Below, piece by piece: positions 110 to 51,561 of a DNA stretch of 64,000 nucleotides. The translations under genes and the position numbers were made by a program. Under the pieces are notes generated by a model. The model did not search any database. It had not been told where the DNA came from and saw only the letters and a program-made list of their open reading frames with translations. Source of the DNA: Escherichia coli (GTDB taxonomy: Bacteria; Pseudomonadota; Gammaproteobacteria; Enterobacterales; Enterobacteriaceae); NCBI RefSeq assembly GCF_003334315.1, contig NZ_QOWR01000018.1. One strand, given 5' to 3'. Each line of letters opens with the position of its first letter. The first letter of the stretch is position 1.

Positions 110-1308
<1,199 letters not shown>

Positions 1309-1350
1309 TTATAGCACAGTGGTGGTGACTTGACCATCGTGCGCGTAGTG

Positions 1351-2652: not shown

Positions 2653-2655
2653 CGC

Positions 2656-3375
2656 TTATTCCCATGCATGAGGCGCAAAAAGATAGCCTTTGTTACGCAC
2701 GGTTTTAATGCGATAAGGTTCTGCGGCGTTATCGAGTAGTTTTTTTCTTAACCGCGAAATAGCCACGTCCACGCTACGATCCAGTCCGTCATAACTGACG
2801 CCGCGTAAATTTTTCAGCAATGCATCGCGGTCCATGATTTGCCCGGCATGGGTAGCTAATTCCCACAATAATTCGAAATCAGCTGTCGAGAGCGAGATTT
2901 CAGTGTTAGCCAGGGTGACTACGCGGTTGATGGGATCGATGGTCAACGTGCCGAAATGCAGGGCTTTGTAGGGAGTCAGAGACGTTTCCTGAAGACCTTT
3001 GGTCAGTGTGGCTTGCTCATTCTGACGCAAATGCAAACGTAAACGCGCTAGCAAAACAGCAGGGGGCGTCGTTTTGAGAATATAGTCGCAGGCACCCATT
3101 TCCAGTGCCAGGATGTGGTTCATATCGCTATCGAGAGAGGTTAGAAGAACAATCGGTCCAGACCACTTTGCGCGTAAATCACGACAAATGGTCATGCCGT
3201 CCTTGCCTGGTAGCATGATGTCGAGTAACACCAAATCCGGATTTTCTCGCAAAATGGTTTCTTCGGCCTGGTCGCCGCGCGGCTCTACGGTAACCTGCAT
3301 ATCATGTTTTGCCAGGTACGCGGCAATCAGTGAACCGACTTCCGCATCATCTTCCACAAATACGATAGTGTTCAT
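2656..3375 (-). CDS. rstA: response regulator RstA (OmpR family), start trimmed to MNTIVFVEDD
   Basis: Receiver domain plus winged-helix C-terminus; 239 aa from the internal ATG. Confidence 0.9.
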   Translation of the reverse strand: MNTIVFVEDDAEVGSLIAAYLAKHDMQVTVEPRGDQAEETILRENPDLVLLDIMLPGKDGMTICRDLRAKWSGPIVLLTSLDSDMNHILALEMGACDYILKTTPPAVLLARLRLHLRQNEQATLTKGLQETSLTPYKALHFGTLTIDPINRVVTLANTEISLSTADFELLWELATHAGQIMDRDALLKNLRGVSYDGLDRSVDVAISRLRKKLLDNAAEPYRIKTVRNKGYLFAPHAWE

Positions 3376-3503
3376 AACATTCACGGTAGATATAAAAACG
3401 TCACAATACACCGCGCTGTTTTTACTTACTATCAATCGTTTCTAAACAAGTTTTCATCAGGTATTCTACTGATGACTTGTTATGGAAGTGTTAAGGTAAA
3501 AAG

Positions 3504-3839
3504 ATGGGGCTGGTAATCAAAGCCGCGCTCGGTGCGCTGGTAGTGCTGTTGATTGGTGTTTTAGCAAAAACGAAAAATTATTATATCGCCGGGCTGATTC
3601 CACTTTTCCCGACCTTTGCGCTTATCGCGCATTATATTGTTGCCAGCGAACGCGGCATTGAAGCCTTACGCGCAACCATCATTTTTAGTATGTGGTCGAT
3701 TATTCCCTATTTTGTTTACCTGGTGTCGCTGTGGTATTTCACCGGAATGATGCGCTTGCCCGCCGCTTTTGTTGGTTCTGTTGCGTGTTGGGGGATAAGC
3801 GCATGGGTGTTGATTATATGCTGGATAAAGCTGCATTAA
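3504..3839 (+). CDS. ydgC: inner membrane protein YdgC (GlpM family)
   Basis: 111 aa hydrophobic ORF; K-12 synteny. Confidence 0.85.
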   Translation: MGLVIKAALGALVVLLIGVLAKTKNYYIAGLIPLFPTFALIAHYIVASERGIEALRATIIFSMWSIIPYFVYLVSLWYFTGMMRLPAAFVGSVACWGISAWVLIICWIKLH

Positions 3840-4558
3840 CGCAGATGACGACCGCCATCAAGTGGGAAACTGCGTCCGGTGACAAAGCAACTGGTAAGTA
3901 AGTAATCGACCAGGTCGATCACTTCTTTCTCGCCAGGCGCGGTTTTCATCAGTGATTTATTCAGCGCCTGTTGTCGATATTCGGCATCATCATGTTCATT
4001 AAACAGGATCAGCGATGGCGCAATAGAATTCACTTTCACTTCCGGTGCCAGCTTGCGGGCAAACGAGCGGGTCATATTATCCAGTGCCGCTTTGCTTGCA
4101 GCATACGCAATATGTTTGTCGCTACCGCGCTCCACCACATAATCGGTAAAGTGAATGATATCGCTGGCGGCGTGTCCGTGCCCACGCAGTAATCTTTCCA
4201 GCGCATGGTTGAGCAGGTATGGGGTATTAACGTGGATCTGCATCATGCAAGCCAGTACGTCGGCCAGTGGCGCACCCGGTTTTTCCGCCATCCACGCACT
4301 GGCGTTATGCAAAATAGCACGCAGACCATGGGTGCTTTTTAGTACTTCATCGGCAAACGCCATCACACCGTCGTTGGTCGAAAAATCAGCCTGAATACAC
4401 TGCGCACCTGCATTAATCAGTCCATCAATGGCTGGATAGTGTGTCCGATAGCTGACAATCACCGGTTGCTTTTGATTAATGAAATGCCATGCGAGGGCGA
4501 GGCCGATGCGACGACCTCCGCCAGTAATTAATATTGGCAAGGGCTGGGTTTTACCCAT
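3836..4558 (-). CDS. folM: dihydromonapterin/dihydrofolate reductase FolM (short-chain dehydrogenase)
   Basis: 240 aa, N-terminal TGGGRRIG Rossmann motif; synteny. Confidence 0.9.
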   Translation of the reverse strand: MGKTQPLPILITGGGRRIGLALAWHFINQKQPVIVSYRTHYPAIDGLINAGAQCIQADFSTNDGVMAFADEVLKSTHGLRAILHNASAWMAEKPGAPLADVLACMMQIHVNTPYLLNHALERLLRGHGHAASDIIHFTDYVVERGSDKHIAYAASKAALDNMTRSFARKLAPEVKVNSIAPSLILFNEHDDAEYRQQALNKSLMKTAPGEKEVIDLVDYLLTSCFVTGRSFPLDGGRHLR

Positions 4559-4594
4559 CGTTATCTCCTTTGCTATCCAACGATGGGATGAACG

Positions 4595-5977
4595 TTATCC
4601 CACCAGCATCCAGGTCGCCGGAACTGAGGCAATTAACAGCATGCCAATCAGCACCATTTCCTGACGGTTCAGTACATTATCATGGGTATGCGTTTTGCGC
4701 GCGTACAGGAAAACCAGCAGCCCCGGTGCATACAGAACAACGGATAACAGCAAGTGCATTGGACCAGAGGCGTACAATAACCATAAGCCATAAATGCAGG
4801 CACCGACACCTACCGCTTTATGCAGTGGACGGGTTGCGATTTTCAGCAAGAACGCGCCGACCAGGAAATAGGGCACCAGAATCATTTCTGAGGCGATGGT
4901 CAGCAACGTGTTGTAATCGGAACCGGTCAGCCAGATGAGTACCAGACAAATTTGCACGCAGATGTTGGTCAACCACAGTGAGGCGGATGGCGCAGCTTGT
5001 GCGTTCTGGCGCGCAAAAATGCGCGGGAATGCTTTATGAGTGGCGGCCAGGAACGGTACTTCTGCTGCCATGATGGTCCAGCTTAAGTACGCGCCGCAAA
5101 CGGAAACGATCAAACCGGCAGCGATGATGATTTCGCCCCATGGTCCCATCATTTCCACCATCAGACCGGCCATTGACGGGTTACGAATTTCAGCCAGTTC
5201 AGGACGTGCCACCACACCCAGCGAAAGCAGCGTTACCAGCAAGTAAACGCCCAGAGCGGAGAGAACCGCCAGCAGTGTCGCTTTGCCAACATCACGTTTA
5301 TTACGCGCACGCGCAGAAACAACCACGGCACCTTCCACACCAATGAAAACCCACAGGGTGATCAGCATGGTGTTTTTCACCTGTTCCCAAACGGGTACGC
5401 CAAGTGCAAGTCCGGTGAAGTCGAGCTTGAAGGTATCCAGTTTGAACATCATCATCGCCAGCACAACAAACAGACCCAGCGGCAACAATTTTGCCAGTGT
5501 CGCCACCAGGTTAATGCTGGCAGCGGTTTGCACCCCGCGCAGGATCAAAAAGTGAACAATCCACAATAAAGCCGATGCACCGACTATCGATTGCCAGGTA
5601 TTACCATCGCCAAACAGGCGCAATTCCGGCGTGTCCGTAAAAAAGCTTAACGCGGAAAAAACGATCACCAGATAGGAGACGTTGGCGATGACTGCGCACA
5701 GCCAGTATCCCCATGCGGAACAAAAGCCGATTAGCTCGCCAAACCCTTCGCGGGCATAGGTAAAGATACCGCCGTCAAGTTCGGGACGAATGCGCGTGAG
5801 GATCAGCATGGCAAAGGCCAGCAATAAAATGCCAGCGCCAGTAATACCCCAGCCGATGAGCAGTGCTGCCGGGCTGGCAACTGCCGCCATATTTTGCGGC
5901 AGACTGAAAACACCCGCGCCCAGCATTGAGCTTAATACCAGCGCGGTGAGTGCGCTCAGTCCCAGTTTCTTTTCCAT
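4595..5977 (-). CDS. ydgI: APC-family amino acid antiporter YdgI (arginine/ornithine antiporter-like)
   Basis: 460 aa polytopic membrane protein; synteny. Confidence 0.88.
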   Translation of the reverse strand: MEKKLGLSALTALVLSSMLGAGVFSLPQNMAAVASPAALLIGWGITGAGILLLAFAMLILTRIRPELDGGIFTYAREGFGELIGFCSAWGYWLCAVIANVSYLVIVFSALSFFTDTPELRLFGDGNTWQSIVGASALLWIVHFLILRGVQTAASINLVATLAKLLPLGLFVVLAMMMFKLDTFKLDFTGLALGVPVWEQVKNTMLITLWVFIGVEGAVVVSARARNKRDVGKATLLAVLSALGVYLLVTLLSLGVVARPELAEIRNPSMAGLMVEMMGPWGEIIIAAGLIVSVCGAYLSWTIMAAEVPFLAATHKAFPRIFARQNAQAAPSASLWLTNICVQICLVLIWLTGSDYNTLLTIASEMILVPYFLVGAFLLKIATRPLHKAVGVGACIYGLWLLYASGPMHLLLSVVLYAPGLLVFLYARKTHTHDNVLNRQEMVLIGMLLIASVPATWMLVG

Positions 5978-6162
5978 CGATATCCAGTGATTAAAACGTG
6001 ATAAGAAGAATAAATATTAGGGCAAAACGCATAAAAATGGAGTTTGCCACTGAAGCGCGGAATTTTACGAAGAGATGTGTCTGCATGCAATGGTCGCGGG
6101 GAAATTTGTGACTAAAAATGCGAAAGGCGGCATCAAGCCGCCTTATAGGAGTAACTGAATAG

Positions 6163-7107
6163 TTATTTATACAGATCTGCGCTGACGGTCAGGTTATTAC
6201 CACGTTCCTGCCACTGGCGGGTGATGTGGTAATACTTAGCACCTTTCTTCGCGGCACGTTTCGCAACCTGATAGGAGACTTCGGTCATGTTGCCGTAGTT
6301 GCCAGAGAATTTGATGCTGTCGAACGGGACCATCATCGCTGCGGTCGCTTTGTTCAGTTCTTCGACTTTAGTGCCATCCGGGAGCGTGACGGTGTAACGC
6401 CCACCTTTTGATGACTGGGTTTCAAAGAAGCGACCGACTTCAGAACTTGGTGATGCGGTAGTCGCAACACCCGGGATCTCAACTTTCTTCGCGGCTTCGC
6501 CACCGGCAGCCAGAGCTGCACGTCCTGCTTCGGAATCTGCCGGGATCACATCCGGGCTCTGGACGATACGTTTCTTAGCATCTTTTTTATAGATGAATGC
6601 AGTAATACGCTGGTTGCCGCCCTGGTTGGCATCGATTTGACGAACGATGTAGAAAGAGTAGGCACCTTTCGCTTTTGCCGCTTTGGTGATGGCATCATTG
6701 ACTTCTGGCTGGCTACGATAGAAGCCCTGGACGGTGACCGTGTCAAACGGTTCAATCAGAACAGCCTGATCTTTCGGCAGTTCGACAACACCGTTAATTA
6801 CGCGATTACTTGTTTCTTCTGCTTTTTCAGCATCGGCTTTATAGAGGTCAGCGACCACACGCCAGTTACCGCTGTTACCAAAATCAGAAGTGTCGACAAC
6901 ATAAAAAGAGGTGGCACCTTCTTTATCTGCGCGACGAGAAACGGCTTTCACCGCTTCGCCAATAGCATTAAAACGACCGGTAACCACTACACGGTCAAAA
7001 GGTTTAACCGCTGCCGCTTGCTCCGGTGTCAGTTCTGTTGCTGCGTTAACGGAGAATGCCGTAGCAGAAAGCAGTGCCGACGCCAGGAGGGTGTTCTTAA
7101 GCTTCAT
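6163..7107 (-). CDS. ydgH: periplasmic protein YdgH (tandem DUF1471 repeats)
   Basis: 314 aa with signal peptide and internally repeated segments; synteny. Confidence 0.85.
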   Translation of the reverse strand: MKLKNTLLASALLSATAFSVNAATELTPEQAAAVKPFDRVVVTGRFNAIGEAVKAVSRRADKEGATSFYVVDTSDFGNSGNWRVVADLYKADAEKAEETSNRVINGVVELPKDQAVLIEPFDTVTVQGFYRSQPEVNDAITKAAKAKGAYSFYIVRQIDANQGGNQRITAFIYKKDAKKRIVQSPDVIPADSEAGRAALAAGGEAAKKVEIPGVATTASPSSEVGRFFETQSSKGGRYTVTLPDGTKVEELNKATAAMMVPFDSIKFSGNYGNMTEVSYQVAKRAAKKGAKYYHITRQWQERGNNLTVSADLYK

Positions 7108-7567
7108 AAAAATAATCCTTCGCCTTGCGCAAACCAGGTACTGGTATTGTTATTAACGAGAAACGTGGCTGATTATTGCATTTAAACGGTGTAACTGTCT
7201 GCGTCATTTTTCATATCACATTCCTTAAGCCAATTTTAATCCTGCTCAAATGACCGTCTATGCTTAAAAAACAGCCGTATCAGCATCATTACTACTGAAG
7301 CAACTGAATTGTATAAGTTAATTTAATGTTAAGTAGTGATTCGTGCCGGGGCGATGTCTCGTTTTACCCGACCGTCGAAGACAATTATCAGTCTTTATCC
7401 GGCGTTCTAAGGTGTTTATCCCACTATCACGGCTGAATCGTTAATATTTTGCGAGTTCACGCCGAAATACTGATTTTTGGCGCTAGATCACAGGCATAAT
7501 TTTCAGTACGTTATAGGGCGTTTGTTACTAATTTATTTTAACGGAGTAACATTTAGCTCGTACATGA

Positions 7568-9163
<1,596 letters not shown>

Positions 9164-18314: not shown

Positions 18315-19010
18315 ATGCTGAAGCGTTTCTTTATTACCGGTACAGACACTTCTGTAGGGAAAACGGTGGTTTCCCGCGCATTGCTACAAGCGTTAGCCTC
18401 CCAGGGAAAAACGGTTGCGGGATATAAACCCGTAGCGAAGGGGAGCAAAGAGACACCCGAAGGGCTGCGTAATAAAGATGCCCTGGTGTTGCAGAGTGTT
18501 TCAACCATCGAACTGCCTTATGAAGCAGTTAATCCTATCGCGTTAAGCGAAGAAGAAAGTAGCGTGGCGCACAGTTGCCCAATCAATTACACCCTCATTT
18601 CAAACGGCCTGGCAAACCTGACCGAAAAAGTCGATCATGTCGTGGTAGAAGGGACTGGCGGCTGGCGCAGTCTGATGAATGATTTGCGTCCACTCTCTGA
18701 ATGGGTAGTGCAGGAACAACTGCCGGTGTTGATGGTTGTCGGTATTCAGGAAGGTTGCATTAACCATGCACTGCTAACAGCTCAGGCGATCGCCAACGAC
18801 GGGCTGCCGCTCATTGGCTGGGTGGCTAACCGAATCAACCCAGGACTGGCGCATTATGCGGAAATCATTGATGTGCTGGGTAAAAAACTTCCGGCACCGC
18901 TCATTGGTGAACTGCCTTATCTGCCGCGCGCCGAACAGCGTGAACTGGGGCAATACATCCGCTTAGCTATGCTGCGCAGTGTGCTGGCGGTAGATAGAGT
19001 CACGGTGTAA
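18315..19010 (+). CDS. ynfK: dethiobiotin synthetase paralog YnfK
   Basis: 231 aa from [17 protein letters not shown] (P-loop). Confidence 0.9.
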
Positions 19011-20219
19011 CGTCCGCGAAATTACCGACGCAATTACGCAGGCAATCAATAAACCGGGGAGTAGCTGATACTCCCCGGTCATTTCACATATCATCAACGT
19101 CGACATAATCGGCGCGTGCGTGGTCGCCGCCAACAGTGTCGCCATCCCGGTCAATCCGAGTAAAAGTGTAATTTCTTCGCCATCAGGGAACCATAATCCC
19201 AGGCTACGACCATACAACATGCCAATGGCAAGACCGATAAATAGCGTCGGTGTAAAGACCCCACCGGGTGCGCCGGAACCGCTACTCGCCAGCACGGCAC
19301 ACAGTTTACAAAGGAAGATCCCGGCAATGATCATTAACAGTGGTGGGGCGGTTAAAAAGGATTGTACGGTGCTATAGCCGTTGCCCCACACTGCAGGTGT
19401 GAACAGGGAAAGCAGACCCACGATCAACCCGCCTAGTGCCAGTTGCCAGGGCGGCGCAAGTTTGAGACTCACAAATCCACGATGACAGGCGTTCATTAAC
19501 GTTAACAACAGTGGTCCGCACAGACCTGCCAGCACACCTGTACTGATAATCAGCGCATAGTCACGAGCCTGAACCGTCACTGAGAGTTGTACGTTGTAGA
19601 GTAACGCGTCGCTATGATTAATCAGATTGCTAACCAGCAATGCCACGACGGCGGAAATAATCACCGGGCCGAGAGAGGCCAACATCATAGTGCCAAACAG
19701 CACTTCGGCTATAAATAAACTGCCAGCAAGCGGGGCACGATAGGCCGCAGCCATTCCCGCCGCGGCCCCACAGGCGATCCATAATTTCCACTCCTGGCGT
19801 GGCGTAAAACGTTGGGCAAAACAGGAGGCGGCAAGGGCAGCTAAAAGAATCATCGCACCTTCGCGACCAATTGCACTGCCGCTGGTTACTACCAGCAGAG
19901 AGGCAAGCGATTTAACCAGGCTTGCTGCGTAATCGAACTGTCCATCGGTTTGCAACGCTTCCATGTAATCGGTCGGCGCATGAGGGCGTTGTTGGGTAAA
20001 TTTCTGCCAGCCCATCAGCAACAAACCCGCCGCCAGTCCGCCGAGCGCCGGAGTTAGCAACCGTCGCCAGGGGGAAAGGTTTGTCGCTGCATTGACCAGA
20101 CTGCCGGAGTCATTATTGAGGAACAACCACTCCAGTAGCAGCATCGCATGACGAAACCCGGCAACGGCAAAGGCCGCGAGAATACCGACGACTGTTGCGA
20201 TAAGCAGACGGCGGAACAT
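18963..20219 (-). CDS. clcB: voltage-gated ClC-type chloride channel ClcB
   Basis: 418 aa from [12 protein letters not shown]...; convergent overlap with ynfK. Confidence 0.9.
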
Positions 20220-20413
20220 AGTGCGCAGATCCGGATAGATGTGTAGATGATGCATGAGCAGAAATGGGCAATGAAACACGGGCGACTATTTTGCGGCAAA
20301 AGAGGCCAGCCGCAAAAGCAGTGCGTGCTTTAAGAGATAAAAAAACGTGACACTGTAACCTATTATTGCCGGATTGCGCGTAATCGTCACCATCCGGCAA
20401 TATTACGGTGATC

Positions 20414-21028
20414 CTATCGAAACAGCGGTTTAACCGCGACAGGAATTAACAGTTGTGATTGCCATTGCGCCAGCGTTAAGCGAGCCAGTTCACCCAGTGC
20501 ACGGTAGAAAGGGTGTTCTGCTTTTTCGATAAAAACATCAAGAAAACGTGTTGACCACGGAAAAAGGTGCCATGCCAGCAATTCTTCGCATTCTTTCTGG
20601 CGACCATTCTCCGCCAACCACGCAGCCATCAACAGCAGTGAACCAAAATGATCTTCCGGTTCGTTTTGCTTCATTTCAAACTGAATGCCTTTCTCGCGCA
20701 TCCACTGACGAAGTGCCAATGTTGAATCGCCAAACAGCACAGATTCGCGATCCAGCCAGACCGACCCCCACGGCGGAGACGGCAGTGCCCACGGGCCGAC
20801 AAACAAACGCTGCCAGGCCTGGGCGTGAGTCTCTTCACACTGTGTCTGAAAAGCCGTCACCAGCGGCGCTAATGACGCTTCTGGTAGAGGCCACTGAGTT
20901 TCCCAGCCGTCACTGGTGAGTACCGCAACCAGAGGTGCGGCTTCCGCACTCTCTGGAGCGTAATAAAACAGCGCGCCCAACACGCGCGCCGCGACAGAAA
21001 AATTATCTTGCTGTGAAAAATGGGTCAT
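20414..21028 (-). CDS. dmsD: Tat proofreading chaperone DmsD
   Basis: 204 aa from MTHFSQQDNFSVAARVLGALFYY. Confidence 0.9.
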   Translation of the reverse strand: MTHFSQQDNFSVAARVLGALFYYAPESAEAAPLVAVLTSDGWETQWPLPEASLAPLVTAFQTQCEETHAQAWQRLFVGPWALPSPPWGSVWLDRESVLFGDSTLALRQWMREKGIQFEMKQNEPEDHFGSLLLMAAWLAENGRQKECEELLAWHLFPWSTRFLDVFIEKAEHPFYRALGELARLTLAQWQSQLLIPVAVKPLFR

Positions 21029-21070
21029 TCCTAACATCCTGAAATGTGCGGGTTGCCCCGCACCAATTTG

Positions 21071-21925
21071 TTAACCTGCAATAGCCATTCCTACTGTCAT
21101 GTGCAGGCCATAAAAGAGCACACGCCCGATCATCTCACCGCCAAGAATGAGGATTAACCCCAGAATAAGTCCGGCAACGTGAGGTTCACGGCGACGAATG
21201 AGCGGACAAACCCAGCATCCTAGACCTGCGCATAACAATACCACACGCCAGACCTGTAAGGAGGCGTAATCTGGTACCAGTGCGCTGGCTTGTTGTACGG
21301 ATGAGTGAATACACGCCAGAGACAAACCTTGCAGCACAATCACCCCGGCACAAGCGATCAGCGCCAGAACGCTAATGATGGCAAATGGTGTGGTATTAAA
21401 TGTAACGCGAGCTGCCCGCAGAATTGCGGCAGCAAGTATTGGACCGCTCAACAATACCGTCAGGAAGAAAGCCAGCGTAGTGTAACCGTTATGCCAGGTT
21501 GGCACGGTGTCGATTTGATACAAGCAGGTCATCATCCAGACGAAAATGACGCCGAGCGCCATGCTGACAAGTAACCAGAGTTTCCCCAACGCTTGCGGCA
21601 TTTTACCGATGACCGCCACCAGCCACCATAGTCCGCCAACGGCAAAAAATATGGAACCGGCAGCAATCTCGTTACTCAGACCAGAAGCTCCGATTCGATT
21701 CAGCGAGTTAAACGCCCGCAGTGGCGATCCCAGGTGCATGACAGAGGCAATAAACCCGATGCCCATCAACAGCCAGAGGAAAAACATGCCACGAACAATG
21801 TGCTGACGGTCTGCGTCATTTTTGGCGGCGAACCAGCCAATTCCGCTAACAATCAGCGCGCCTACTACGCATTGACCCAATACGGTAAAGATAACCAGTG
21901 GCCACTCATGCAATCCATTTCCCAT
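21071..21925 (-). CDS. ynfH: DMSO reductase-type membrane anchor subunit YnfH
   Basis: 284 aa from MGNGLHEWPLVIFTV; the longer 364 aa ORF is an upstream extension overlapping ynfG. Confidence 0.88.
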   Translation of the reverse strand: MGNGLHEWPLVIFTVLGQCVVGALIVSGIGWFAAKNDADRQHIVRGMFFLWLLMGIGFIASVMHLGSPLRAFNSLNRIGASGLSNEIAAGSIFFAVGGLWWLVAVIGKMPQALGKLWLLVSMALGVIFVWMMTCLYQIDTVPTWHNGYTTLAFFLTVLLSGPILAAAILRAARVTFNTTPFAIISVLALIACAGVIVLQGLSLACIHSSVQQASALVPDYASLQVWRVVLLCAGLGCWVCPLIRRREPHVAGLILGLILILGGEMIGRVLFYGLHMTVGMAIAG

Positions 21926-21926
21926 T

Positions 21927-22544
21927 TTACACTTCCTCCGGATTAGCCAGATAACCAGTGGTATCGCCGGTCGGGCGGCTGTTGGCGTTAGGTTTGATAA
22001 CGATATTGGGTTTTGTGAAATGCGCGCGCGGCAGTGGCGCGACGGCAGCAAGAGTGCCGTGCTTCTGGCGCAGCTCTTCAATTGGACCGAACTCAAGTGC
22101 ACGCAGCGGGCAGGATTCGACGCATATGGGTTGTTTCCCCTCGGCGACGCGCGAATAACAACCATCGCACTTCGTCATGTGCCCTTTTTCAGCATTGTAC
22201 TGTGGTGCGCCGTACGGACAAGCCATGTGGCAGTAGCGACAGCCGATACAAACATCTTCATCAACCACCACAAAGCCATCTTCACGCTTATGCATTGCGC
22301 CGCTGGGGCAGACTTTTGTACATGCGGGGTCATCGCAATGGTTACAGGAGATGGAGAGATAATAAGCGAAAACGTTCTGGTGCCAGACGCCATTATCTTC
22401 CTGCCAGTCGCCGCCAGCATATTCATAAATACGGCGGAAACTGACTTCCGGGCCAAGATCTTTAAAATCTTTGCACGCCAGTTCGCAGGTTTTACAGCCA
22501 GTACAGCGGCTGGAATCGATAAAAAATCCATATTGTGTGGTCAT
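21927..22544 (-). CDS. ynfG: 4Fe-4S ferredoxin-type subunit YnfG
   Basis: 205 aa with four CxxCxxCxxxCP clusters. Confidence 0.92.
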   Translation of the reverse strand: MTTQYGFFIDSSRCTGCKTCELACKDFKDLGPEVSFRRIYEYAGGDWQEDNGVWHQNVFAYYLSISCNHCDDPACTKVCPSGAMHKREDGFVVVDEDVCIGCRYCHMACPYGAPQYNAEKGHMTKCDGCYSRVAEGKQPICVESCPLRALEFGPIEELRQKHGTLAAVAPLPRAHFTKPNIVIKPNANSRPTGDTTGYLANPEEV

Positions 22545-22554
22545 GGGCTACTCC

Positions 22555-24981
22555 TTAAACCTTTTCGATCTGGACAAGATTGCTGTGCGACGGGTTTCCC
22601 TTTGCCAGCGGTGAAGGGCGGTGCGAGGTCAGAATATTGATACTGCCGCCGTGATCGACCCGGTCACCAAACATATCCGCTTTAAGCCAAGCACCTTGCC
22701 CGATGGCGGTAACGCCAGGCAGAATACGCGGAGTCACTTTTGCGGCAATCAGCATTTCTCCATTATTGTTAAATACCCGCACGGTATCGCCATGACGGAT
22801 ACCGCGTGCCTGAGCATCAATGGGGTTGATCCACACCTCTTGTGGGCAGGCCTGCTGTAACACATCAATATTGCCGTAGCTGGAGTGGGTACGCGCTTTG
22901 TAATGGAAGCCCGTTAACTGCAGTGGATAGGTTTTCCGCAGGGGATCGTCCCAGCCATCAAAACCTGGCGTATAAGCTGGAAGGGGATGAATAACTTCAT
23001 CTTTTTTCAATTCCCAGGTATCTGCAATCTTCGCCAGTCGTTCAGAATAAATTTCGATTTTCCCCGAAGGTGTTTTCAACGGGTTTGCCTGTGGTTCTTC
23101 ACGGAATGCGCGGAAAGCGACGTAGTGTTCTTCCGGGCATTTTTTCTTAAAGATCCCGGTCGTTTTCATCTCCTCGTAGTCGGGCATCTCAGGGTTACGT
23201 TCCTTCGTTTTCGCATGGAGATATTTGATCCATTCATGCTGACTGCGACCTTCAGTAAAGGTTTGATAAACGTCTGGTCCTAAGCGTTTGGCGACTTCAC
23301 TCAGCATCCAGTAGATGGGTTTGCGTTCAAATTTTGCTGAGGTTGCGGGTTGGGCGAGGATCACATAGCCCATATTCCCGGCAGATTCATGAGAGATAAG
23401 GTCTTCTTGCTCTGTTGGCATCAGGTCGGGCAACAGGATATCGCAATACTTAGCCGAGGCAGTCATGAAGTGGTCAATGCCAACAATCATCTCGCACTTG
23501 CTGTCATCCTGAAGCACCTCATGGGTGTGATTGATGTCACCATGTTGATTGATCAATGTGTTACTGGCGTAGCACCATAAAAACTTGATGGGGACATCCA
23601 GTTTTTCTTTTCCACGAACACCATCACGGGTCGCGGTCATTTCCTTACCATGGTCGATGGCATCTGTCCATGTAAAGACGGAAATCTGCGTTTTAACAGG
23701 GTTCTCAAGCATCGGGAACCATTCTACCCCCAGATCCCAGCTACCTTCGCGTACACCTGAGTTGCCGCCGTTTATGCCGACGTTACCGGTGAGAACGGAA
23801 AGCATGGCAATAGCGCGGGATGTTTGCTCGCCGTTGGAATGTCGTTGTGGCCCCCAACCCTGACAAATATAAGCAGGTTTTGCTGAACCGATCTCTCGCG
23901 CCAACTGGATAATTTTTTCTGCCGGGATGCTGGTGATTTTTGCTGCCCATTCCGGCGTTTTAGCTATGCCGTCAGGCCCTTCGCCCAGAATATAGGCTTT
24001 ATAATGCGCGTTACGTGGTGCGTTGGCGGGCAGCGTTTTTTCATCGTAACCAACACAATATTTGTCGAGAAATGGCTGATCGACCATGTTTTCAGTAATC
24101 AGTACCCAGGCAATCGCACAGGCCAGTGCGCCATCGGTGCCAGGGCGAATGGGCAGCCATTCATCTTCACGCCCGGCAGCTGTGTCGTTATAACGTGGAT
24201 CGATGACGATCATGCGTGCGTTTGAACGTTCGCGGGCTTGCTCGACGTAGTAAGTGACACCACCGCCGCTCATCCGTGTTTCTGCCGGGTTATTTCCGAA
24301 CATAACGACCAGTTTCGTATTGGCGATATCATCCGGGCTGTTGCCATCATTGGCACCGAACATATAACTCATTGCGGCACTGATCTGTGCGGTACTGTAG
24401 CTGCCATAGCGACTGAGAAAACCACCACATGAGTTCATCAGACGGTACGGGACGTTTGAGTTGGTGATGTTTCCGCCATCTACGCCTGTTCCGTACAGGA
24501 CATGTACAGCCTCATTGCCGTAATCTTTCAGGATCCGCCGAAGATTATCACTGATGGTATCCAGGGCTTCGTCCCAACTTATCCGTTCAAATTTACCTTC
24601 ACCGCGCTTGCCGACGCGCTTCATGGGATATTTCAACCTATCAGGATGATTCATCCGTCGGCGGATAGAGCGCCCGCGTAAACACGCTCGAACCTGATGA
24701 TTACCGTAGACGTCGTCACCTGTCGTATCAGACTCCACCCAGTACACGGTGTCATCTTTCACATGCAAACGTAACAGACAGCGGCTCCCGCAGTTAACGG
24801 TGCAGGAACTCCAGACCGCTTTCTCTTCTACCGGAGCCTCTGCCGCCCGGACCATTTGGGAAAATGGCAGAGTGAAAGCACTGCTTGCCAGCGCAAGACT
24901 GCCAAGTGCGGAGGTTTTCATCAGACTTCTACGGCTGATTTCAGCCTTCATGAGCGCCTCTGTGGTATGGATTTTCATCAT
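22555..24981 (-). CDS. ynfF: molybdopterin oxidoreductase YnfF (DmsA paralog), Tat signal
   Basis: 808 aa; SRRSLMK twin-arginine motif; paralogous to the adjacent ynfE. Confidence 0.92.
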   Translation of the reverse strand: MMKIHTTEALMKAEISRRSLMKTSALGSLALASSAFTLPFSQMVRAAEAPVEEKAVWSSCTVNCGSRCLLRLHVKDDTVYWVESDTTGDDVYGNHQVRACLRGRSIRRRMNHPDRLKYPMKRVGKRGEGKFERISWDEALDTISDNLRRILKDYGNEAVHVLYGTGVDGGNITNSNVPYRLMNSCGGFLSRYGSYSTAQISAAMSYMFGANDGNSPDDIANTKLVVMFGNNPAETRMSGGGVTYYVEQARERSNARMIVIDPRYNDTAAGREDEWLPIRPGTDGALACAIAWVLITENMVDQPFLDKYCVGYDEKTLPANAPRNAHYKAYILGEGPDGIAKTPEWAAKITSIPAEKIIQLAREIGSAKPAYICQGWGPQRHSNGEQTSRAIAMLSVLTGNVGINGGNSGVREGSWDLGVEWFPMLENPVKTQISVFTWTDAIDHGKEMTATRDGVRGKEKLDVPIKFLWCYASNTLINQHGDINHTHEVLQDDSKCEMIVGIDHFMTASAKYCDILLPDLMPTEQEDLISHESAGNMGYVILAQPATSAKFERKPIYWMLSEVAKRLGPDVYQTFTEGRSQHEWIKYLHAKTKERNPEMPDYEEMKTTGIFKKKCPEEHYVAFRAFREEPQANPLKTPSGKIEIYSERLAKIADTWELKKDEVIHPLPAYTPGFDGWDDPLRKTYPLQLTGFHYKARTHSSYGNIDVLQQACPQEVWINPIDAQARGIRHGDTVRVFNNNGEMLIAAKVTPRILPGVTAIGQGAWLKADMFGDRVDHGGSINILTSHRPSPLAKGNPSHSNLVQIEKV

Positions 24982-25038
24982 TACTCACTTATTGCTTTTC
25001 AAACAAAATGTCATGCCAGAATTTATGGTTGTCGTGGG

Positions 25039-27465
25039 TTATATTTTTTCGATCTCGACCAGATTAGTGTGCTGCGGGTTTCCCTTCGCCAGTGGTGAAG
25101 GGCGCAGAGTGGTTAGCGTATTCACACAGCCGCCATGGTCGATTTTATCGCCAGACATATTGGCCTCGTGCCAGGCTCCCTGGCCCATAGCGCTAACTCC
25201 AGGGAGAATACGTGGTGTCACTTTGGCTGGTAGCCGAACTTCGCCACGATGGTTAAACACCCGAACCATATCGCCGTTGGCAATCCCTCGTTTCTGCGCA
25301 TCTATAGGGTTGATCCACACCTCCTGACGGCAGGCAGCCTTCAGGAGATCAATATTGCCGTAGGTCGAGTGAGTACGGGATTTGTAATGGAAACCAAACA
25401 GTTGCAGTGGGAAGGTTCTACGTTCAGGGGAGTCCCAGCCTTCAAAGGTTGAGGTATAAACTGGCAATGGGCTTATCACTTCATCTTTTTCCAGTTCCCA
25501 GGTACGGGCAATTTCCGCCAGCCTGCTGGAATAAATTTCAATCTTACCGGAAGGCGTTTTAAGTGGATTTGCCTCGGGGTCGTCACGAAATGCTTTGTAG
25601 GCGACAAAATGACCATTGGGATCTTTACGCTTATAGATACCCATTTTTTTCAGTTCGTCGTAAGACGGTAACGCCGGATCTTTGGCAAGCATTTTGGCGT
25701 ACAGATGTTGTAACCATTGTTCCTGCGTGCGACCTTCTGTGAACTTTTGATAGACGTCAGGTCCAAGACGTTTCGCGACTTCACTCAGGATCCAGTAAAT
25801 CGGTTTACGTTCGAATTTTTCGCTGGTGACTGGCTGGAGGAAAATGAGATAACCCATGTTACCGGCGTAGTCGTTAGGAATAATATCTTCCTGCTCAACG
25901 GTCATCAGGTCTGGCAGCAGAATGTCGGCATATTTTGCCGATGAGGTCATAAAGTTTTCGATGACCACAATCATTTCGCATTTCGATTCGTCTTGCAGAA
26001 TTTCATGCGTTTTGTTGATGTCAGAATGCTGATTAACCAGGGTATTTCCCGCGTAGTTCCAGATGAACTTAATGGGCACATCCAGTTTATCTTTGCCGCG
26101 GACGCCGTCGCGGATTGCCGTCATTTGCGGGCCATGATCGATAGCATCCGTCCAGCTGAAGCAGGAGATTGACGTTTTGACCGGATTATCCAGCACCGGT
26201 AGGCGTTCTATGGTAATGGTATAGGTCGATTCTCGCGCGCCACTATTTCCGCCGCTGATGCCGACATTGCCCGTCAAAATAGGCAACATAGCAATAGCGC
26301 GTGCGGTCAGCTCGCCGTTTGCCTGGCGTTGTGGCCCCCAGCCCTGGCAGATATAAGCGGGTTTTGCTGTGCCAATTTCACGCGCCAGTTTGATGATACG
26401 GTCCACCGGGATACCGGTAATTTGCGAAGCCCACTGCGGCGTTTTCGCTGTGTTATCGTCACCTTCACCAAGAATATAGGCTTTATAGTGACCATTTTTT
26501 GGTGCATCTGCGGGTAAGGTTTTTTCGTCATAGCCGACGCAGTATTTATCGAGAAAAGGTTGATCAACGAGATTTTCGTTAATCAATACCCAGGCAATCC
26601 CCGCAACCAGCGCGGCATCGGTGCCCGGGCGAATAGGAAGCCATTCATCTTCACGACCAGCAGCCGTATCGGTATATCGCGGATCGATAACAATCATTTT
26701 GGCGTTCGATTTCTCGCGCGCTTTTTCAAGAAGATAAGTGATGCCACCGCCGCTCATGCGGGTTTCTGCCGGGTTGTTACCAAACATCACGACCAGCTTG
26801 CTGTTTTCAATATCCGTGGTGCTGTTGCCATCATTACTGCCGTAGGTGTAGGGCATGGCACAGGAAATTTGCGCAGTGCTGTAGGAGCCATACTGGTTGA
26901 GTGAACCGCCGTAGCAGTTCATCAGGCGTTTGACCGCCGAGGCTGATGGCGAAGAGCGGGTCATATTGCCGCCAACGATCCCCGAAGAGTACTGAATATA
27001 TACAGCCTCATTGCCATATTGTTCGACGGTTTTCTTCAGGCTACTGGCGATAGTATCCAGGGCTTCATCCCAGCTAATCCGTTCGAATTTGCCTTCGCCG
27101 CGTTTGCCCACGCGTTTCATTGGGTAATTCAAGCGATCGGGATGATTACTACGCCGGCGGATGGAGCGACCGCGCAAACAGGCCCGTACCTGATGGTTGC
27201 CGTACTCATCGCTGCCGGTATTGTCAGTTTCCACCCAGGTCACTTCATTATCTTTAACATGTAGACGAAGTGCACAGCGGCTACCACAGTTGACGGAACA
27301 GGCACCCCAGACCACTTTTTCGCGGGCCCGTTGTACCGATGCTGCTGCATTGCGCAGGGTAAACGGCAAAGAAAAACCGCCTGCAGCCAGCGCCAGAGAA
27401 CCTATCGCGGTAGATTTAACGAGTGTTCTGCGGCTGATGCCCACCATTCGTTCATTTTTGGACAT
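25039..27465 (-). CDS. ynfE: molybdopterin oxidoreductase YnfE (selenate reductase/DmsA paralog), Tat signal
   Basis: 808 aa; SRRTLVK twin-arginine motif. Confidence 0.92.
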   Translation of the reverse strand: MSKNERMVGISRRTLVKSTAIGSLALAAGGFSLPFTLRNAAASVQRAREKVVWGACSVNCGSRCALRLHVKDNEVTWVETDNTGSDEYGNHQVRACLRGRSIRRRSNHPDRLNYPMKRVGKRGEGKFERISWDEALDTIASSLKKTVEQYGNEAVYIQYSSGIVGGNMTRSSPSASAVKRLMNCYGGSLNQYGSYSTAQISCAMPYTYGSNDGNSTTDIENSKLVVMFGNNPAETRMSGGGITYLLEKAREKSNAKMIVIDPRYTDTAAGREDEWLPIRPGTDAALVAGIAWVLINENLVDQPFLDKYCVGYDEKTLPADAPKNGHYKAYILGEGDDNTAKTPQWASQITGIPVDRIIKLAREIGTAKPAYICQGWGPQRQANGELTARAIAMLPILTGNVGISGGNSGARESTYTITIERLPVLDNPVKTSISCFSWTDAIDHGPQMTAIRDGVRGKDKLDVPIKFIWNYAGNTLVNQHSDINKTHEILQDESKCEMIVVIENFMTSSAKYADILLPDLMTVEQEDIIPNDYAGNMGYLIFLQPVTSEKFERKPIYWILSEVAKRLGPDVYQKFTEGRTQEQWLQHLYAKMLAKDPALPSYDELKKMGIYKRKDPNGHFVAYKAFRDDPEANPLKTPSGKIEIYSSRLAEIARTWELEKDEVISPLPVYTSTFEGWDSPERRTFPLQLFGFHYKSRTHSTYGNIDLLKAACRQEVWINPIDAQKRGIANGDMVRVFNHRGEVRLPAKVTPRILPGVSAMGQGAWHEANMSGDKIDHGGCVNTLTTLRPSPLAKGNPQHTNLVEIEKI

Positions 27466-27663
27466 AACTCACTCCCTGTTCTTTATCGTTATATAAAAGT
27501 TTATATATTGAATATTTAGCGCGCTAACAATAGAGGGAGTCTACCCATTTTGGGTTAAGAATTATTAATCCATATCAATAGAAGGGTATGAGTAATAAGG
27601 TGGGATTATGTTGTATGTTCAAATCGCCGGATTTGTCATATCCGGCGTTCAGTCGATAATGTG

Positions 27664-27969
27664 TTACTGCGGTTCGGCAGGCGCGCCATCCTGGCTAGAC
27701 TGCGCGGGAGCAGAGACGTTACCGCTGGTGGTGCGGGTATAGAGAATTTTATGCGTATCATTAGCGCAATGGCCGACGACCTGGGAATCAGGCTGATCAA
27801 CCTGGTCATTGGGTACAATACTTAACGTGAAGCTGCTTTCGGGTACGCCATTATTGATAATGCGCTGTGATATATCGCTCTGTATGCGCTCACAGGATCC
27901 CGGCGCGGCGAGTACCGCGGGTGAGGCGAGGGCGAGCAGAAGCGCGGCACAGCAGGTTGAGAGTTTCAT
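27664..27969 (-). CDS. ynfD: DUF1161 periplasmic protein YnfD
   Basis: 101 aa from MKLSTCCAALLLALASPAVLA signal peptide. Confidence 0.85.
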   Translation of the reverse strand: MKLSTCCAALLLALASPAVLAAPGSCERIQSDISQRIINNGVPESSFTLSIVPNDQVDQPDSQVVGHCANDTHKILYTRTTSGNVSAPAQSSQDGAPAEPQ

Positions 27970-28040
27970 CATAAGCTCCTTACGCGAAGATAACTTCTTT
28001 AAGCATAGCATTTAACGTGTAAAGTACTGTATTTGCTACT

Positions 28041-28757
28041 ATGATTGAGAATCATCTCTACTCTCTGGTGACTGTTGTGAAATACAAATTACTACCATGC
28101 TTACTCGCGATATTCCTCACAGGATGTGACCGCACAGAGGTAACACTTTCATTTACCCCTGAGATGGCCAGTTTCTCTAATGAATTCGATTTTGATCCGC
28201 TGCGTGGTCCGGTAAAAGATTTCACTCAGACATTAATGGATGAGCAAGGTGAAGTGACGAAACGTGTTTCTGGGACTTTGTCGGAAGAAGGCTGTTTTGA
28301 TTCACTCGAATTACTGGATCTGGAAAATAATACCGTGGTCGCTCTGGTACTGGACGCCAATTATTACCGTGATGCCGAGACGCTGGAGAAGAGAGTACGT
28401 TTACATGGAAAATGCCAGCTAGCAGAATTACCTTCTGCCGGGGTGAGTTGGGAAACCGATGATAATGGCTTCGTGATTAAAGCCAGCAGCAAACAAATGC
28501 AGATGGAATATCGCTATGATGATCAGGGTTATCCGCTGGGTAAAACCACGAAAAGTAACGACAAAACATTATCTGTCAGCGCCACGCCATCAACGGATCC
28601 GATCAAAAAATTAGATTACACAGCGGTTACTTTACTGAATAATCAACGGGTTGGTAATGTAAAACAGAGCTGTGAATATGACAGTCACGCTAATCCGGTG
28701 GACTGTCAGCTAATCATTGTTGATGAAGGAGTAAAACCCGCCGTCGAACGGGTTTAA
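28041..28757 (+). CDS. ynfC: UPF0257 lipoprotein YnfC; the true start may be the internal GTG at 28077 giving MKYKLLPCLLAIFLTGC
   Basis: Lipobox LTGC after a hydrophobic signal region; synteny. Confidence 0.82.
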   Translation: MIENHLYSLVTVVKYKLLPCLLAIFLTGCDRTEVTLSFTPEMASFSNEFDFDPLRGPVKDFTQTLMDEQGEVTKRVSGTLSEEGCFDSLELLDLENNTVVALVLDANYYRDAETLEKRVRLHGKCQLAELPSAGVSWETDDNGFVIKASSKQMQMEYRYDDQGYPLGKTTKSNDKTLSVSATPSTDPIKKLDYTAVTLLNNQRVGNVKQSCEYDSHANPVDCQLIIVDEGVKPAVERV

Positions 28758-37580: not shown

Positions 37581-37633
37581 CGGCGGCAGAGCAGTCACGG
37601 AGTAAAACTGATACCGCCAAACGTCACCAGAAA
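37581..37633 (-). ncRNA. dicF: DicF small regulatory RNA (ftsZ-targeting) with its 3' T-run
   Basis: Reverse complement reads TTTCTGGTGACGTTTGGCGGTATCAGTTTTACTCCGTGACTGCTCTGCCGCCG followed by TTTTT, matching DicF as recalled; located upstream of dicB. Confidence 0.85.
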
Positions 37634-42947: not shown

Positions 42948-43204
42948 ATACAGCGAACTCCATTGGTTTAGTTGGATATTTACTGTGCTGGACAAAACGG
43001 TTTGCGGGGAAATCTTAGTTAAGTAGAATGACTGCGGGTACTTGAGGCTATCTGCCTCGGGCACGAACACCAACGGCAGGTAGAGAAAAGCCCCAGTTAA
43101 CATTACGCGTCCTGCAAGACGCTTAACATTAATCTGAGGCCAATTTCATGCTAGACACATGTAGGTTAGCCTCTTACGTGCCGAAAGGCAAGGAGAAGCA
43201 GGCT

Positions 43205-43360
43205 ATGAAGCAGCAAAAGGCGATGTTAATCGCCCTGATCGTCATCTGTTTAACCGTCATAGTGACGGCACTGGTAACGAGGAAAGACCTCTGCGAGGTA
43301 CGAATCCGAACCGGCCAGACGGAGGTCGCTGTCTTCACAGCTTACGAACCTGAGGAGTAA
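43205..43360 (+). CDS. hokD: Hok-family type I toxin (HokD/RelF-like, 51 aa)
   Basis: MKQQKAMLIALIVICLTVIVTALVTRKDLCEVRIRTGQTEVAVFTAYEPEE; upstream in-frame leader ORF from 43148 (mok-like). Confidence 0.85.
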   Translation: MKQQKAMLIALIVICLTVIVTALVTRKDLCEVRIRTGQTEVAVFTAYEPEE

Positions 43361-50676: not shown

Positions 50677-51039
50677 ATTAATATTAAATCGGATTATTTT
50701 TAGCGCTGAATGTGAAATTTAAATAAAAAGGACTCTTCCATGAGTCAAAATCCTTGAAATCTTAAGGGTAAGATAAAAGGTCATTAGACAGAATGACACG
50801 TTTTATTAATAAATAAAGCTATTGTTTCATTCGTGTGTTTTTCTTTACAAAAGTAATCCTTGCTATGGTTGGTTAATCATGCGTTAATGGTGTTCTGGTT
50901 TGTTACAAAATTATCTGAAGCAGTCATTGTTATAATTTTATTATTTGTACCTCTTGAGATTTCCTTGTTGGTTTTTCTCTCTGATATTTTTTTTCGGACC
51001 ATTCTGCCCAAGGGCTAACTTCTTCAAAAGGTAATAATG

Positions 51040-51252
51040 ATGTCTAACAAAATGACTGGTTTAGTGAAATGGTTTAACCCTGAAAAAGGTTTTGGTTTCA
51101 TCACGCCGAAAGATGGTAGCAAAGATGTGTTTGTCCATTTCTCAGCTATTCAGAGCAACGATTTCAAAACGTTAACTGAGAATCAGGAAGTCGAATTTGG
51201 TATTGAGAACGGACCTAAAGGCCCCGCGGCTGTTCATGTTGTGGCACTTTGA
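51040..51252 (+). CDS. cold shock protein (CspA family; CspB/CspI-like)
   Basis: [38 protein letters not shown]... RNP1/RNP2 motifs. Confidence 0.9.
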
Positions 51253-51561
51253 GGTAGAAAATATTACAAACCATATTCACTTTAGATGCCCGTGTTGCCA
51301 TGGTTCTCAGTATAGAACATCATCTTTTGATGTTTCTGACAGGAATCCTTTCGGGGCAAAATGTATCTTTTGTAAATCAATGATGATTACATTTGATAAT
51401 ATTTCACAATACTTAAATGTTAGCCGTCTGTCGTTAGATTTAAGAAAGTGAAAATGAAGGCTCCTTCGGGAGCTTTTTTGCTTAGTGTCTAGTCGATGGA
51501 TACTCACATATTACGGTAACATTATGAAAAAAATAATAGTTTTTTTAACTCTGAACCAGCA

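Follow-up and report, generated by a model that had tools for sequence, protein, structure and literature searches.

The tandem ynfE and ynfF genes of Escherichia coli: ancient paralogs at the head of the ynfEFGH-dmsD operon

Two adjacent genes of nearly identical layout, both encoding molybdopterin oxidoreductases, occupy part of a 64,000-nucleotide stretch of the E. coli chromosome (hereafter the window). Such an arrangement raises the question of whether the copies form a large repeat, liable to misassembly or recombination as the original prediction had supposed, or a pair of paralogs that have long since diverged. Our findings leave us with very little doubt that the interval comprises ynfE and ynfF, ancient tandem paralogs that are the first two genes of ynfEFGH-dmsD, encode selenate/tellurate reductase isoenzymes and do not recombine with one another. 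The tandem pair is itself an ordinary, well-known feature, already described as a pair of paralogs (PMC5203670; PMC12724226).

Gene identity and operon layout

The annotation of identical DNA in RefSeq, curated NCBIfam models and the literature all agree with the predicted assignment of the two minus-strand reading frames of 808 residues to ynfE and ynfF of ynfEFGH-dmsD (Table 1). For ynfF, the open reading frame from the first ATG covers 22555-24981 (-) and encodes 808 residues, while RefSeq places the start at the ATG immediately following (window position 24978), which gives 807. Since the Shine-Dalgarno sequence GTGAG lies 5 nt ahead of the second ATG and 2 nt ahead of the first, the second is the better-fitting start. 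The catalytic genes are followed by those for the iron-sulfur subunit, the membrane anchor and DmsD, all on the same strand and separated by short gaps of 60, 10, 1 and 42 nt (ynfG begins 10 nt past ynfF), the layout of the ynfEFGH-dmsD operon. With regard to the downstream genes, YnfG scores 264.8 bits against TIGR02951 (cutoff 214.1) and DmsD 347 bits against NF008632 (cutoff 162); no NCBIfam match was found for YnfH at E <= 1e-10. Relative to K-12 (C600), ynfE of the window has 30 nucleotide differences, amounting to 7 amino acids, and ynfF has 20, amounting to 3.

Table 1. Features of the ynfEFGH-dmsD locus in window coordinates.
Feature	Coordinates	Strand	Description and basis
ynfE	25039..27465	(-)	808-aa ORF, upstream paralog; RefSeq annotation of identical DNA, NCBIfam NF041885, three Pfam domains
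ynfF	22555..24978	(-)	807 aa per RefSeq, downstream paralog; NCBIfam NF041884, three Pfam domains
ynfG	21927..22544	(-)	205 aa, four-cluster iron-sulfur electron-transfer subunit; RefSeq, NCBIfam TIGR02951
ynfH	21071..21925	(-)	284 aa, membrane anchor / quinol-oxidising subunit; RefSeq, 57% identity to K-12 DmsC
dmsD	20414..21028	(-)	Tat proofreading chaperone, last gene of the operon; RefSeq, NCBIfam NF008632
YnfE Tat signal peptide region	27340..27465	(-)	about residues 1-42; SRRTLVK at 11-17, hydrophobic core, AAA at 40-42; motif search
YnfF Tat signal peptide region	24844..24978	(-)	about residues 1-45; SRRSLMK at 15-21, VRA at 43-45; motif search
ynfE-ynfF spacer	24979..25038	(-)	60 nt; ynfF Shine-Dalgarno GTGAG and RyhB-complementary stretch
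FNR-like site TTGATATGGATTAA	27565..27578	(-)	1 mismatch to TTGAT-N4-ATCAA; pattern scan

The names YnfE and YnfF are supported because each protein passes its own curated NCBIfam model and not that of its paralog. Against NF041885 (selenate/tellurate reductase subunit YnfE, curated cutoff 1675 bits), YnfE (the protein of 25042-27465(-)) scores 1789.3 and YnfF 1482.2; against NF041884 (selenate/tellurate reductase subunit YnfF, curated cutoff 1650 bits), YnfF (the protein of 22558-24978(-)) scores 1771.3 and YnfE 1472.8. Both fail the DmsA model NF011566 (1342.8 for YnfE and 1319.8 for YnfF, cutoff 1600) and, judging from these scores, the two proteins are paralogs of DmsA and not DmsA itself. 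The broader model TIGR02166 (DMSO/selenate family reductase complex A subunit, cutoff 777.7) is passed by both, at 1397.3 and 1285.5 and over its positions 1-794 of 794, and the type II model TIGR03479 was rejected, with scores of just 232-234 against a cutoff of 985.

The near-identical architecture that had been noticed is borne out by the Pfam domains Molybdop_Fe4S4, Molybdopterin and Molydop_binding, which occur in this order in both proteins (E-values from 1e-12 to 1e-69), and by shared identical peptides that reach 26 residues, such as YPMKRVGKRGEGKFERISWDEALDTI. A four-Cys motif, C-x3-C-x3-C-x(n)-C, at residues 56-96 of YnfE and 59-99 of YnfF is the predicted site of the N-terminal FS0 [4Fe-4S] cluster. 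The segment YGSYSTAQIS is also identical in both, at residue 192 in YnfE and 191 in YnfF, and presumably contains the serine ligand of Mo, as in DmsA. By sequence, the closest PDB entries are 1eu1 (E = 2e-76), 7l5i and 9h4t; the search yielded no structure for YnfE, YnfF or DmsA themselves.

Predicted enzyme, export and control

As predicted, both proteins carry Tat signals, with the twin-arginine consensus S/T-R-R-x-F/L-L/V/M-K and a hydrophobic core. The Pfam TAT_signal model gives a weak match for YnfF (E = 0.14) and none for YnfE, and the Tat assignment therefore leans on the motif and the literature. Cleavage would take place at AAA in YnfE and at VRA in YnfF, the latter aligning where the DmsA leader ends. 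The n-regions of the two signal peptides are unlike, the N-terminus of YnfF resembling that of DmsA and that of YnfE not, as also noted in PMC5203670. In this regard, binding of DmsD to the YnfE and YnfF signal peptides has been demonstrated in Salmonella (PMC5203670), and PMC3316669 likewise reports DmsD binding of these Tat substrates.

These features are consistent with a model in which YnfE and YnfF would each be a catalytic subunit of about 90 kDa of the DMSO-reductase family, with Mo-bis-MGD and an N-terminal [4Fe-4S] cluster as its cofactors. While these are being inserted, DmsD would grip the catalytic subunit through its twin-arginine signal peptide, and Tat would then export it. The exported YnfE or YnfF would dock on the common YnfG (FeS) and YnfH (quinol-oxidising anchor), and the product would be a periplasm-facing selenate/tellurate reductase in two isoenzyme forms. 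For the enzymatic activity, the DmsD dependence and the regulation by FNR, NarL and RyhB we draw on the literature, and we infer the subunit stoichiometry of the Ynf reductase. YnfE and YnfF have been termed isoenzymes (PMC12724226); in Salmonella, however, YnfF adds little to selenate reduction (PMC5203670), and the term may therefore overstate the equivalence of the copies.

Concerning transcription, the ynfEFGH-dmsD operon is reported to be activated by FNR and repressed by NarL (PMC6561318, which cites Xu et al. 2009). Transcription would start upstream of ynfE under this control, and the FNR-like site in Table 1, which is centred 106 nt ahead of the ynfE start codon, is a candidate for the site through which the operon promoter is activated; this assignment is inferred because it derives from a consensus match. 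In the interval 20000-28100, a promoter consensus scan gave fewer matches than shuffle expectation and a terminator scan modestly more, all of the latter inside coding regions; Rfam at gathering thresholds returned nothing within 20-28 kb.

An additional layer of control applies to ynfF, where RyhB pairs with the ribosome-binding site within the 60-nt spacer. The RyhB-complementary stretch consists of 7 bp, a 2-nt bulge and 10 bp, and spans the ynfF Shine-Dalgarno sequence and first AUG. The duplex of the spacer with K-12 RyhB has a dG of -35.6 vs -25.3 +/- 4.2 for shuffles, 3 of 300 of which were as good, and the same test on the ynfE and ynfG leaders gave no signal. Consistently, RyhB represses a ynfF(-60..+24)-lacZ fusion (PMC4666370), and Table 1 of that paper names ynfF and dmsA, but not ynfE, as genes on which RyhB acts.

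Among known systems, YnfEFGH-DmsD of E. coli and Salmonella enterica is the same system as that in the window: gene order is equal, DNA identity to annotated E. coli loci is about 100% and there is no difference of substance. E. coli DmsABC shares the plan of a catalytic (A), an FeS (B) and an anchor (C) subunit, all paralogous, as well as the Tat leader and the dependence on DmsD (94% identity for DmsB/YnfG and 57% for DmsC/YnfH in K-12), but has one catalytic gene, lies at a locus of its own some 0.7 Mb distant in K-12 and has another assigned substrate according to the literature. Soluble S-/N-oxide reductases of the Rhodobacter DorA and E. coli TorA type belong to the same Mo-bisMGD fold family and provide the nearest solved structures, although they lack the N-terminal FS0 cluster region and FeS and anchor partners; the PDB matches, which are of this type, cover mainly residues ~120-807. 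SrnABCD of Enterobacter cloacae is a homologous operon with FeS, anchor and Tat-chaperone genes, but its catalytic gene is single, with no second copy of the ynfF type (PMC12724226). SerABC of Thauera selenatis shares the selenate to selenite chemistry and the DMSO-reductase superfamily, but belongs to the type II (NarG-like) enzymes and arose separately, and multiple origins have been argued for selenate reductases (PMC12724226).

Divergence of the copies and the repeat question

The pairwise alignment that had been proposed as a check spans nearly the whole of both proteins in BLASTP, at 1229 bits and E = 0; 569 of 801 positions are identical (71%) and 85% score as positives, a resemblance far beyond chance. 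At the DNA level identity is 0.70, falling to 0.48 at third codon positions, with dN 0.21, dS about 2 (saturated) and omega about 0.1. A repeat search places the copies in register with a period of 2484 nt, which a 4-codon indel lengthens to 2496 nt in the 5' part. Identity to K-12 DmsA is 67.5% for YnfE and 66.7% for YnfF, with branch lengths of 0.140 and 0.148; by this measure, the divergence of the two from DmsA is symmetric. Purifying selection acts on both genes within E. coli, with omega at 0.04-0.12 in ynfE and 0.04-0.07 in ynfF. As for other genera, E. cloacae SrnA and E. coli YnfE are 86% identical (PMC12724226), and the Salmonella pair of YnfE and YnfF is also 71% identical (PMC5203670). 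The duplication would thus predate the split of Escherichia, Salmonella and Enterobacter, and both copies would have been kept by purifying selection since then. What had been called a large tandem duplication is aptly named in the evolutionary sense and in no other, because the duplication is ancient.

For a population survey, the whole pair, the E-F junction and internal segments served as queries against 5426 complete E. coli genomes, and representatives of each aberrant class were inspected. The tandem pair was found over at least 80% of its length in at least 5127 genomes; the other 299 lack a contiguous match of this extent, and at most 34 keep part of the locus without the E-F junction. 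Of the two of these 34 or fewer that were examined, one carries an IS1-associated deletion and the other an illegitimate deletion of 1.27 kb with 5-nt microhomology. In ST131, ynfF has lost 274 and 580 bp through two internal deletions, both out of frame, and it is annotated as a frameshifted pseudogene in EC958 and MNCRE44. About 10% of complete genomes, ST131 included, lack an internal segment of ynfF while part of the locus is kept; in losses of the ST131 type, ynfE stays intact and constrained. In about 160 genomes it is ynfE that is disrupted: a 6.5-kb element carrying an integrase splits it at a 17-nt core, and ynfF is intact. Expression of ynfF has been studied in EC958, although the gene is a pseudogene in that strain.

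The idea that the tandem pair is an assembly artefact, that is, a mis-expanded repeat, or else a recent duplication with near-identical, collapse-prone copies, draws on the equal ORF lengths and the in-register 2484-nt period, a superficial likeness. The longest exact run between the genes is 17 nt and they share no k-mers of 18 nt or longer, which together with 70% DNA identity means that neither reads nor de Bruijn k-mers >=21 can confuse the copies. Saturated dS, the Salmonella pair with its equal divergence and the presence of the arrangement throughout the complete genomes, more than 12 of them, independently assembled, with ~100% identity over 8.1 kb of the locus, likewise speak against it; it is effectively refuted, and we give it practically no credence. 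Slightly less remote, though still highly improbable, is that ynfE and ynfF are an active substrate for homologous recombination or conversion, with hybrids, deletions or concerted evolution as the outcome. Direct repeats spaced 2.5 kb apart would allow this, and the genomes with incomplete or junction-less loci could be read in its favour. Nevertheless, the best 150-nt sliding window reaches 0.79 identity and the longest perfect identity is the 17-nt run. The minimal efficient processing segment for RecBCD/RecA recombination is roughly 23-27 bp, so that 17 nt falls short, and 30% divergence strongly suppresses homologous exchange. Sliding identity and variant patterns revealed no conversion tracts between the genes: the variants that match the paralog's base (23-35% of variants) are scattered, not clustered. 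The lesions examined are all illegitimate deletions, IS1 deletions or site-specific insertions, and none is a one-period crossover; judged from the lesions inspected, no one-period (2484/2496 bp) E/F fusion was found among the 5426 complete genomes.

The paralogs thus lack the properties of a recombinogenic or assembly-confounding repeat, and the predicted hazard of misassembly or recombination is not supported at this locus. DNA divergence is so great that the pair no longer acts as a repeat for assemblers or RecA-type recombination. Gene conversion between ynfG and dmsB, whose proteins are 94% identical and whose DNA shares an exact run of 38 nt, was also considered and rejected (third-position identity 0.50, dS saturated, dN 0.039): their likeness is due to strong purifying selection, not to recent exchange, and probably accounts for the second location that megablast reported in each genome.

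Natural loss and the roles of the two copies

Given two retained paralogs, it may be asked whether both matter. One reading holds that one copy, likeliest ynfF, is redundant and becoming a pseudogene, so that only ynfE matters in the window. The small YnfF share of selenate reduction in Salmonella (PMC5203670), the single catalytic gene of the E. cloacae operon (PMC12724226) and the ~10% of complete genomes that lack an internal ynfF segment, EC958 and MNCRE44 among them, would fit. We consider it quite improbable, however: ynfF is intact in the window and passes its curated model, intact ynfF is constrained at least as strongly as ynfE, the divergence of both from DmsA is symmetric, ynfF has a dedicated RyhB control site with experimental support, and ynfE too is knocked out naturally, in ~160 genomes. 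As both genes are lost naturally, each copy is individually dispensable in some lineages. Subfunctionalisation, with unlike substrate ranges or expression niches, would refine the interpretation of the genes as long-retained isoenzymes rather than replace it, and is a possibility to be taken seriously, albeit on balance an unlikely one. It would agree with the long retention of the paralogs under purifying selection, the dissimilar n-regions (PMC5203670), RyhB control reported for ynfF and dmsA and not ynfE (PMC4666370), and the different responses of ynfE and ynfF to HOCl in EC958 (PMC12096835), where ynfF is a pseudogene. On the other hand, the literature terms both isoenzymes (PMC12724226), and sequence analysis identified no specificity-changing residues.

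A further proposal, that YnfE and YnfF are non-equivalent and that ynfF loss and ynfE insertion amount to a knock-out experiment carried out by natural populations, appears doubtful to us. Should the losses prove adaptive or tied to a niche instead of neutral, they would point toward distinct physiological roles of YnfE and YnfF.

Returning to ynfE and ynfF as ancient, non-recombining isoenzyme genes, the pair are textbook paralogs for which routine annotation suffices, with no concern over misassembly or repeat instability. They represent a clean case of long-retained duplicate catalytic subunits sharing one electron-transfer module, and natural single knock-outs, namely ynfF in ST131 and the element-bearing ynfE, could be of use in telling the functions of the two isoenzymes apart.

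Identity of the ynfE/ynfF pair and its surroundings

The two tandem 808-aa reading frames read from the sequence are recovered in a mechanical ORF list (table) and by BLASTP, in which YnfE and YnfF align over 801 residues with only 9 gap positions at 71% identity and 85% positives (1229 bits, E = 0), a similarity far above chance. In a repeat search the two genes line up in register with a period of 2484 nt; an indel of four codons lengthens it to 2496 nt across the 5' fifth. The near-identical architecture, the many identical peptide stretches and the Tat signals of the original prediction are likewise confirmed: Molybdop_Fe4S4, Molybdopterin and Molydop_binding occur in the same order in both proteins, identical peptide runs reach 26 residues, a four-Cys FS0 motif is present in each, and the twin-arginine motif reads SRRTLVK in YnfE and SRRSLMK in YnfF. 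The length of 808 aa holds for both longest ORFs; for ynfF, RefSeq gives 807 aa. Two adjacent ATGs open this gene (window 24976-24981), and RefSeq starts at the second, at 24978. The Shine-Dalgarno sequence GTGAG lies 5 nt ahead of the second ATG and merely 2 nt ahead of the first, which gives the second the better spacing; it is also the start used in K-12.

That the pair is a known feature of the ynfEFGH-dmsD operon was borne out. The surrounding 8.1 kb match many complete E. coli chromosomes at ~100% identity, and the annotation there reads ynfE, ynfF, ynfG, ynfH and dmsD. YnfE scores 1789 on the NCBIfam YnfE model (cutoff 1675) and only 1473 on the YnfF model (cutoff 1650), and YnfF scores 1771 on its own model and 1482 on that of YnfE, so that the curated models tell the paralogs apart cleanly. 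Both score above the cutoff of the DMSO/selenate A-subunit subfamily model and below that of the NCBIfam DmsA model, and YnfG and DmsD each clear the cutoff of their own equivalog model. The window thus holds the YnfEFGH-DmsD system itself, with intergenic gaps of 60, 10, 1 and 42 nt in operon order, and not the paralogous DmsABC; the E. cloacae SrnABCD system, orthologous in part, differs in having a single catalytic gene. The copy of the PDB searched holds no solved structure of YnfE, YnfF or DmsA, the nearest being Rhodobacter DorA and Tor-type enzymes. The pair is already known and ordinary, and nothing about it in the window is new.

Window 121-32788 is collinear with strain HS30-1, with 9 mismatches. 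Within it, bioD (ynfK, a second dethiobiotin synthase paralog) and clcB are convergent, their 3' ends overlapping by 48 nt (18963-19010, from the RefSeq annotation of near-identical DNA). Positions 1-124 lie within the end of an IS1 copy, 99% identical to an annotated IS1B end in comparison DNA from another E. coli genome (L004); genomes hold a median of 10 copies of this sequence. The IS1 sits in the 3' part of fumC (breakpoint ~120-124), which is presumably disrupted; the junction is found in none of 5426 complete genomes and looks strain-specific. At the other end, a Qin-type lambdoid prophage occupies 32789-64000, starting ~90 nt into ydfJ (intact in HS30-1) and continuing past the window end; 32700-57000 is 100% identical to a prophage of strain IBS28.

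Locations of features in the window and, where a handle is given, in comparison DNA from other E. coli genomes
Feature	Location	Strand	Description
ynfE ORF	25039-27465	-	808 aa; mechanical ORF list
ynfF ORF	22555-24981	-	808 aa; mechanical ORF list
Downstream ORF (ynfG)	21927-22544	-	205 aa; mechanical ORF list
Downstream ORF (ynfH)	end at 21071	-	~284 aa; mechanical ORF list
Downstream ORF (dmsD)	20414-21028	-	~204 aa; mechanical ORF list
DicF RNA	37581-37632		in prophage
hokD with sok	43036-43210		in prophage
cspI with cspA-type 5' thermoregulator	50882-51298		in prophage
Prophage cargo			integrase, excisionase, exonuclease, dicB, lysis genes, terminase, portal, capsid, tail genes
ST131 ynfF pseudogene	L002 (MNCRE44) 1501-3070; L011 (EC958) 7264-8833		1570 nt, frameshifted; ynfE intact there
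Element inserted in ynfE	L008 (LCP22S3_I2) 1106-7601		540-aa site-specific integrase and several hypothetical proteins

The repeat question and natural lesions

The sole speculative element of the original prediction, that the duplication is a potential source of misassembly or recombination, is refuted on quantitative grounds. At the DNA level, ynfE and ynfF match exactly over 17 nt at most and have no 18-mer in common, and identity is at most 79% in every sliding 150-nt window. Efficient RecA/RecBCD exchange in E. coli requires ~23-27 bp of perfectly matching sequence and drops sharply as sequences diverge, and short-read assemblers use k of at least 21; by either measure, the pair does not qualify as a functional repeat. 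The locus is present in 5323 of the 5426 complete E. coli genomes (at least 80% contiguous in 5127) and the ynfE-ynfF junction in 5289, which leaves no more than 34 genomes that retain some of the locus and might be missing the junction. Neither an in-register event of 2484/2496 bp nor a crossover between the genes is found among the aberrant classes inspected, namely ST131, XJ5.2, MB07152 and an integrase element. In the strains compared with the window, 23-35% of variants match the paralog's base, and their scattered distribution argues against conversion tracts.

In ST131 strains MNCRE44 and EC958, ynfF has two out-of-frame internal deletions, corresponding to window 22637-22910 (274 bp) and 23685-24264 (580 bp); the window copy is intact. 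A 2025 paper measured ynfF expression in EC958 and counted YnfF among its S-/N-oxide reductases (PMC12096835). An internal ynfF segment is absent from 664 of the 5426 genomes, 103 of them without the whole locus; thus, in ~10% of complete genomes some of the locus remains but ynfF is decayed. In XJ5.2, 1.27 kb (window 24977-26244) are deleted, with microhomology of 5 nt, and in MB07152 an IS1-associated deletion begins at window 22881. A ~6.5-kb element interrupts ynfE at a 17-nt core, GTAGTTCCAGATGAACT, corresponding to window 26053-26069 (ynfE is intact here); copies of the core flank the element as a direct repeat with one mismatch, and the core is absent at the paralogous ynfF position. 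The ynfE segment around 26069 is split in two in ~162 complete genomes. These ynfF losses and ynfE splits indicate that either paralog on its own can be dispensed with in some lineages, in line with partial redundancy.

Age, selection and regulation of the two copies

Pairwise alignment of the two genes gives 71% identity for protein and 70% for DNA, with only 48% at third codon positions (dN 0.21, dS ~2 and saturated, omega ~0.1). YnfE and YnfF are 67.5% and 66.7% identical to DmsA, with branch lengths of 0.140 and 0.148; therefore, neither copy is the faster-evolving. The Salmonella pair is likewise 71% identical (PMC5203670) and E. coli YnfE shares 86% identity with SrnA of E. cloacae (PMC12724226), which makes the duplication older than the split of these genera. 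Comparison of the window with K-12 C600, O157:H7, an avian strain and ST131 EC958 gives omega of 0.04-0.12 for ynfE and 0.04-0.07 for ynfF; purifying selection on both genes is strong.

YnfG is 94% identical to K-12 DmsB (comparison DNA L009, 4415-5032), other Ynf/Dms subunit pairs reaching 57-71% (YnfH and DmsC, 57%), and the two genes have a 38-nt exact run in common. Gene conversion between these distant loci was ruled out by a third-position identity of 0.50 and saturated dS; with dN at 0.039, the likeness is due to extremely tight constraint on the FeS subunit, not to recent exchange.

The operon product is a membrane-bound, periplasm-facing selenate reductase, with YnfE as main catalytic subunit and YnfF as a 71%-identical second, and DmsD binds the signal peptides of YnfE, YnfF and DmsA ahead of Tat export (PMC5203670). 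Quinol is oxidised by YnfH, and YnfG serves in electron transfer. E. coli deleted for ynfEF no longer reduces selenate, and the authors of that study regard the two as paralogous isoenzymes (PMC12724226). As described in a passage of PMC6561318 that cites Xu et al. (2009), FNR activates the operon promoter and phospho-NarL represses it. In this regard, a pattern scan found an FNR-like sequence, TTGATATGGATTAA, 106 nt upstream of the ynfE ATG, a candidate for the site used by FNR.

Translation of ynfF is repressed by RyhB through the region from -60 to +24 (PMC4666370). In the window, the 60-nt ynfE-ynfF spacer (24979-25038) is complementary to K-12 RyhB over 7 + 10 bp, a stretch that takes in the Shine-Dalgarno sequence and the first AUG, with a duplex dG of -35.6 against -25.3 +/- 4.2 for shuffled sequences (3 of 300 as good); the same duplex test found no such signal in the ynfE or ynfG leaders. 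This pairing matches the published repression, and the downstream copy, ynfF, is under its own post-transcriptional control.
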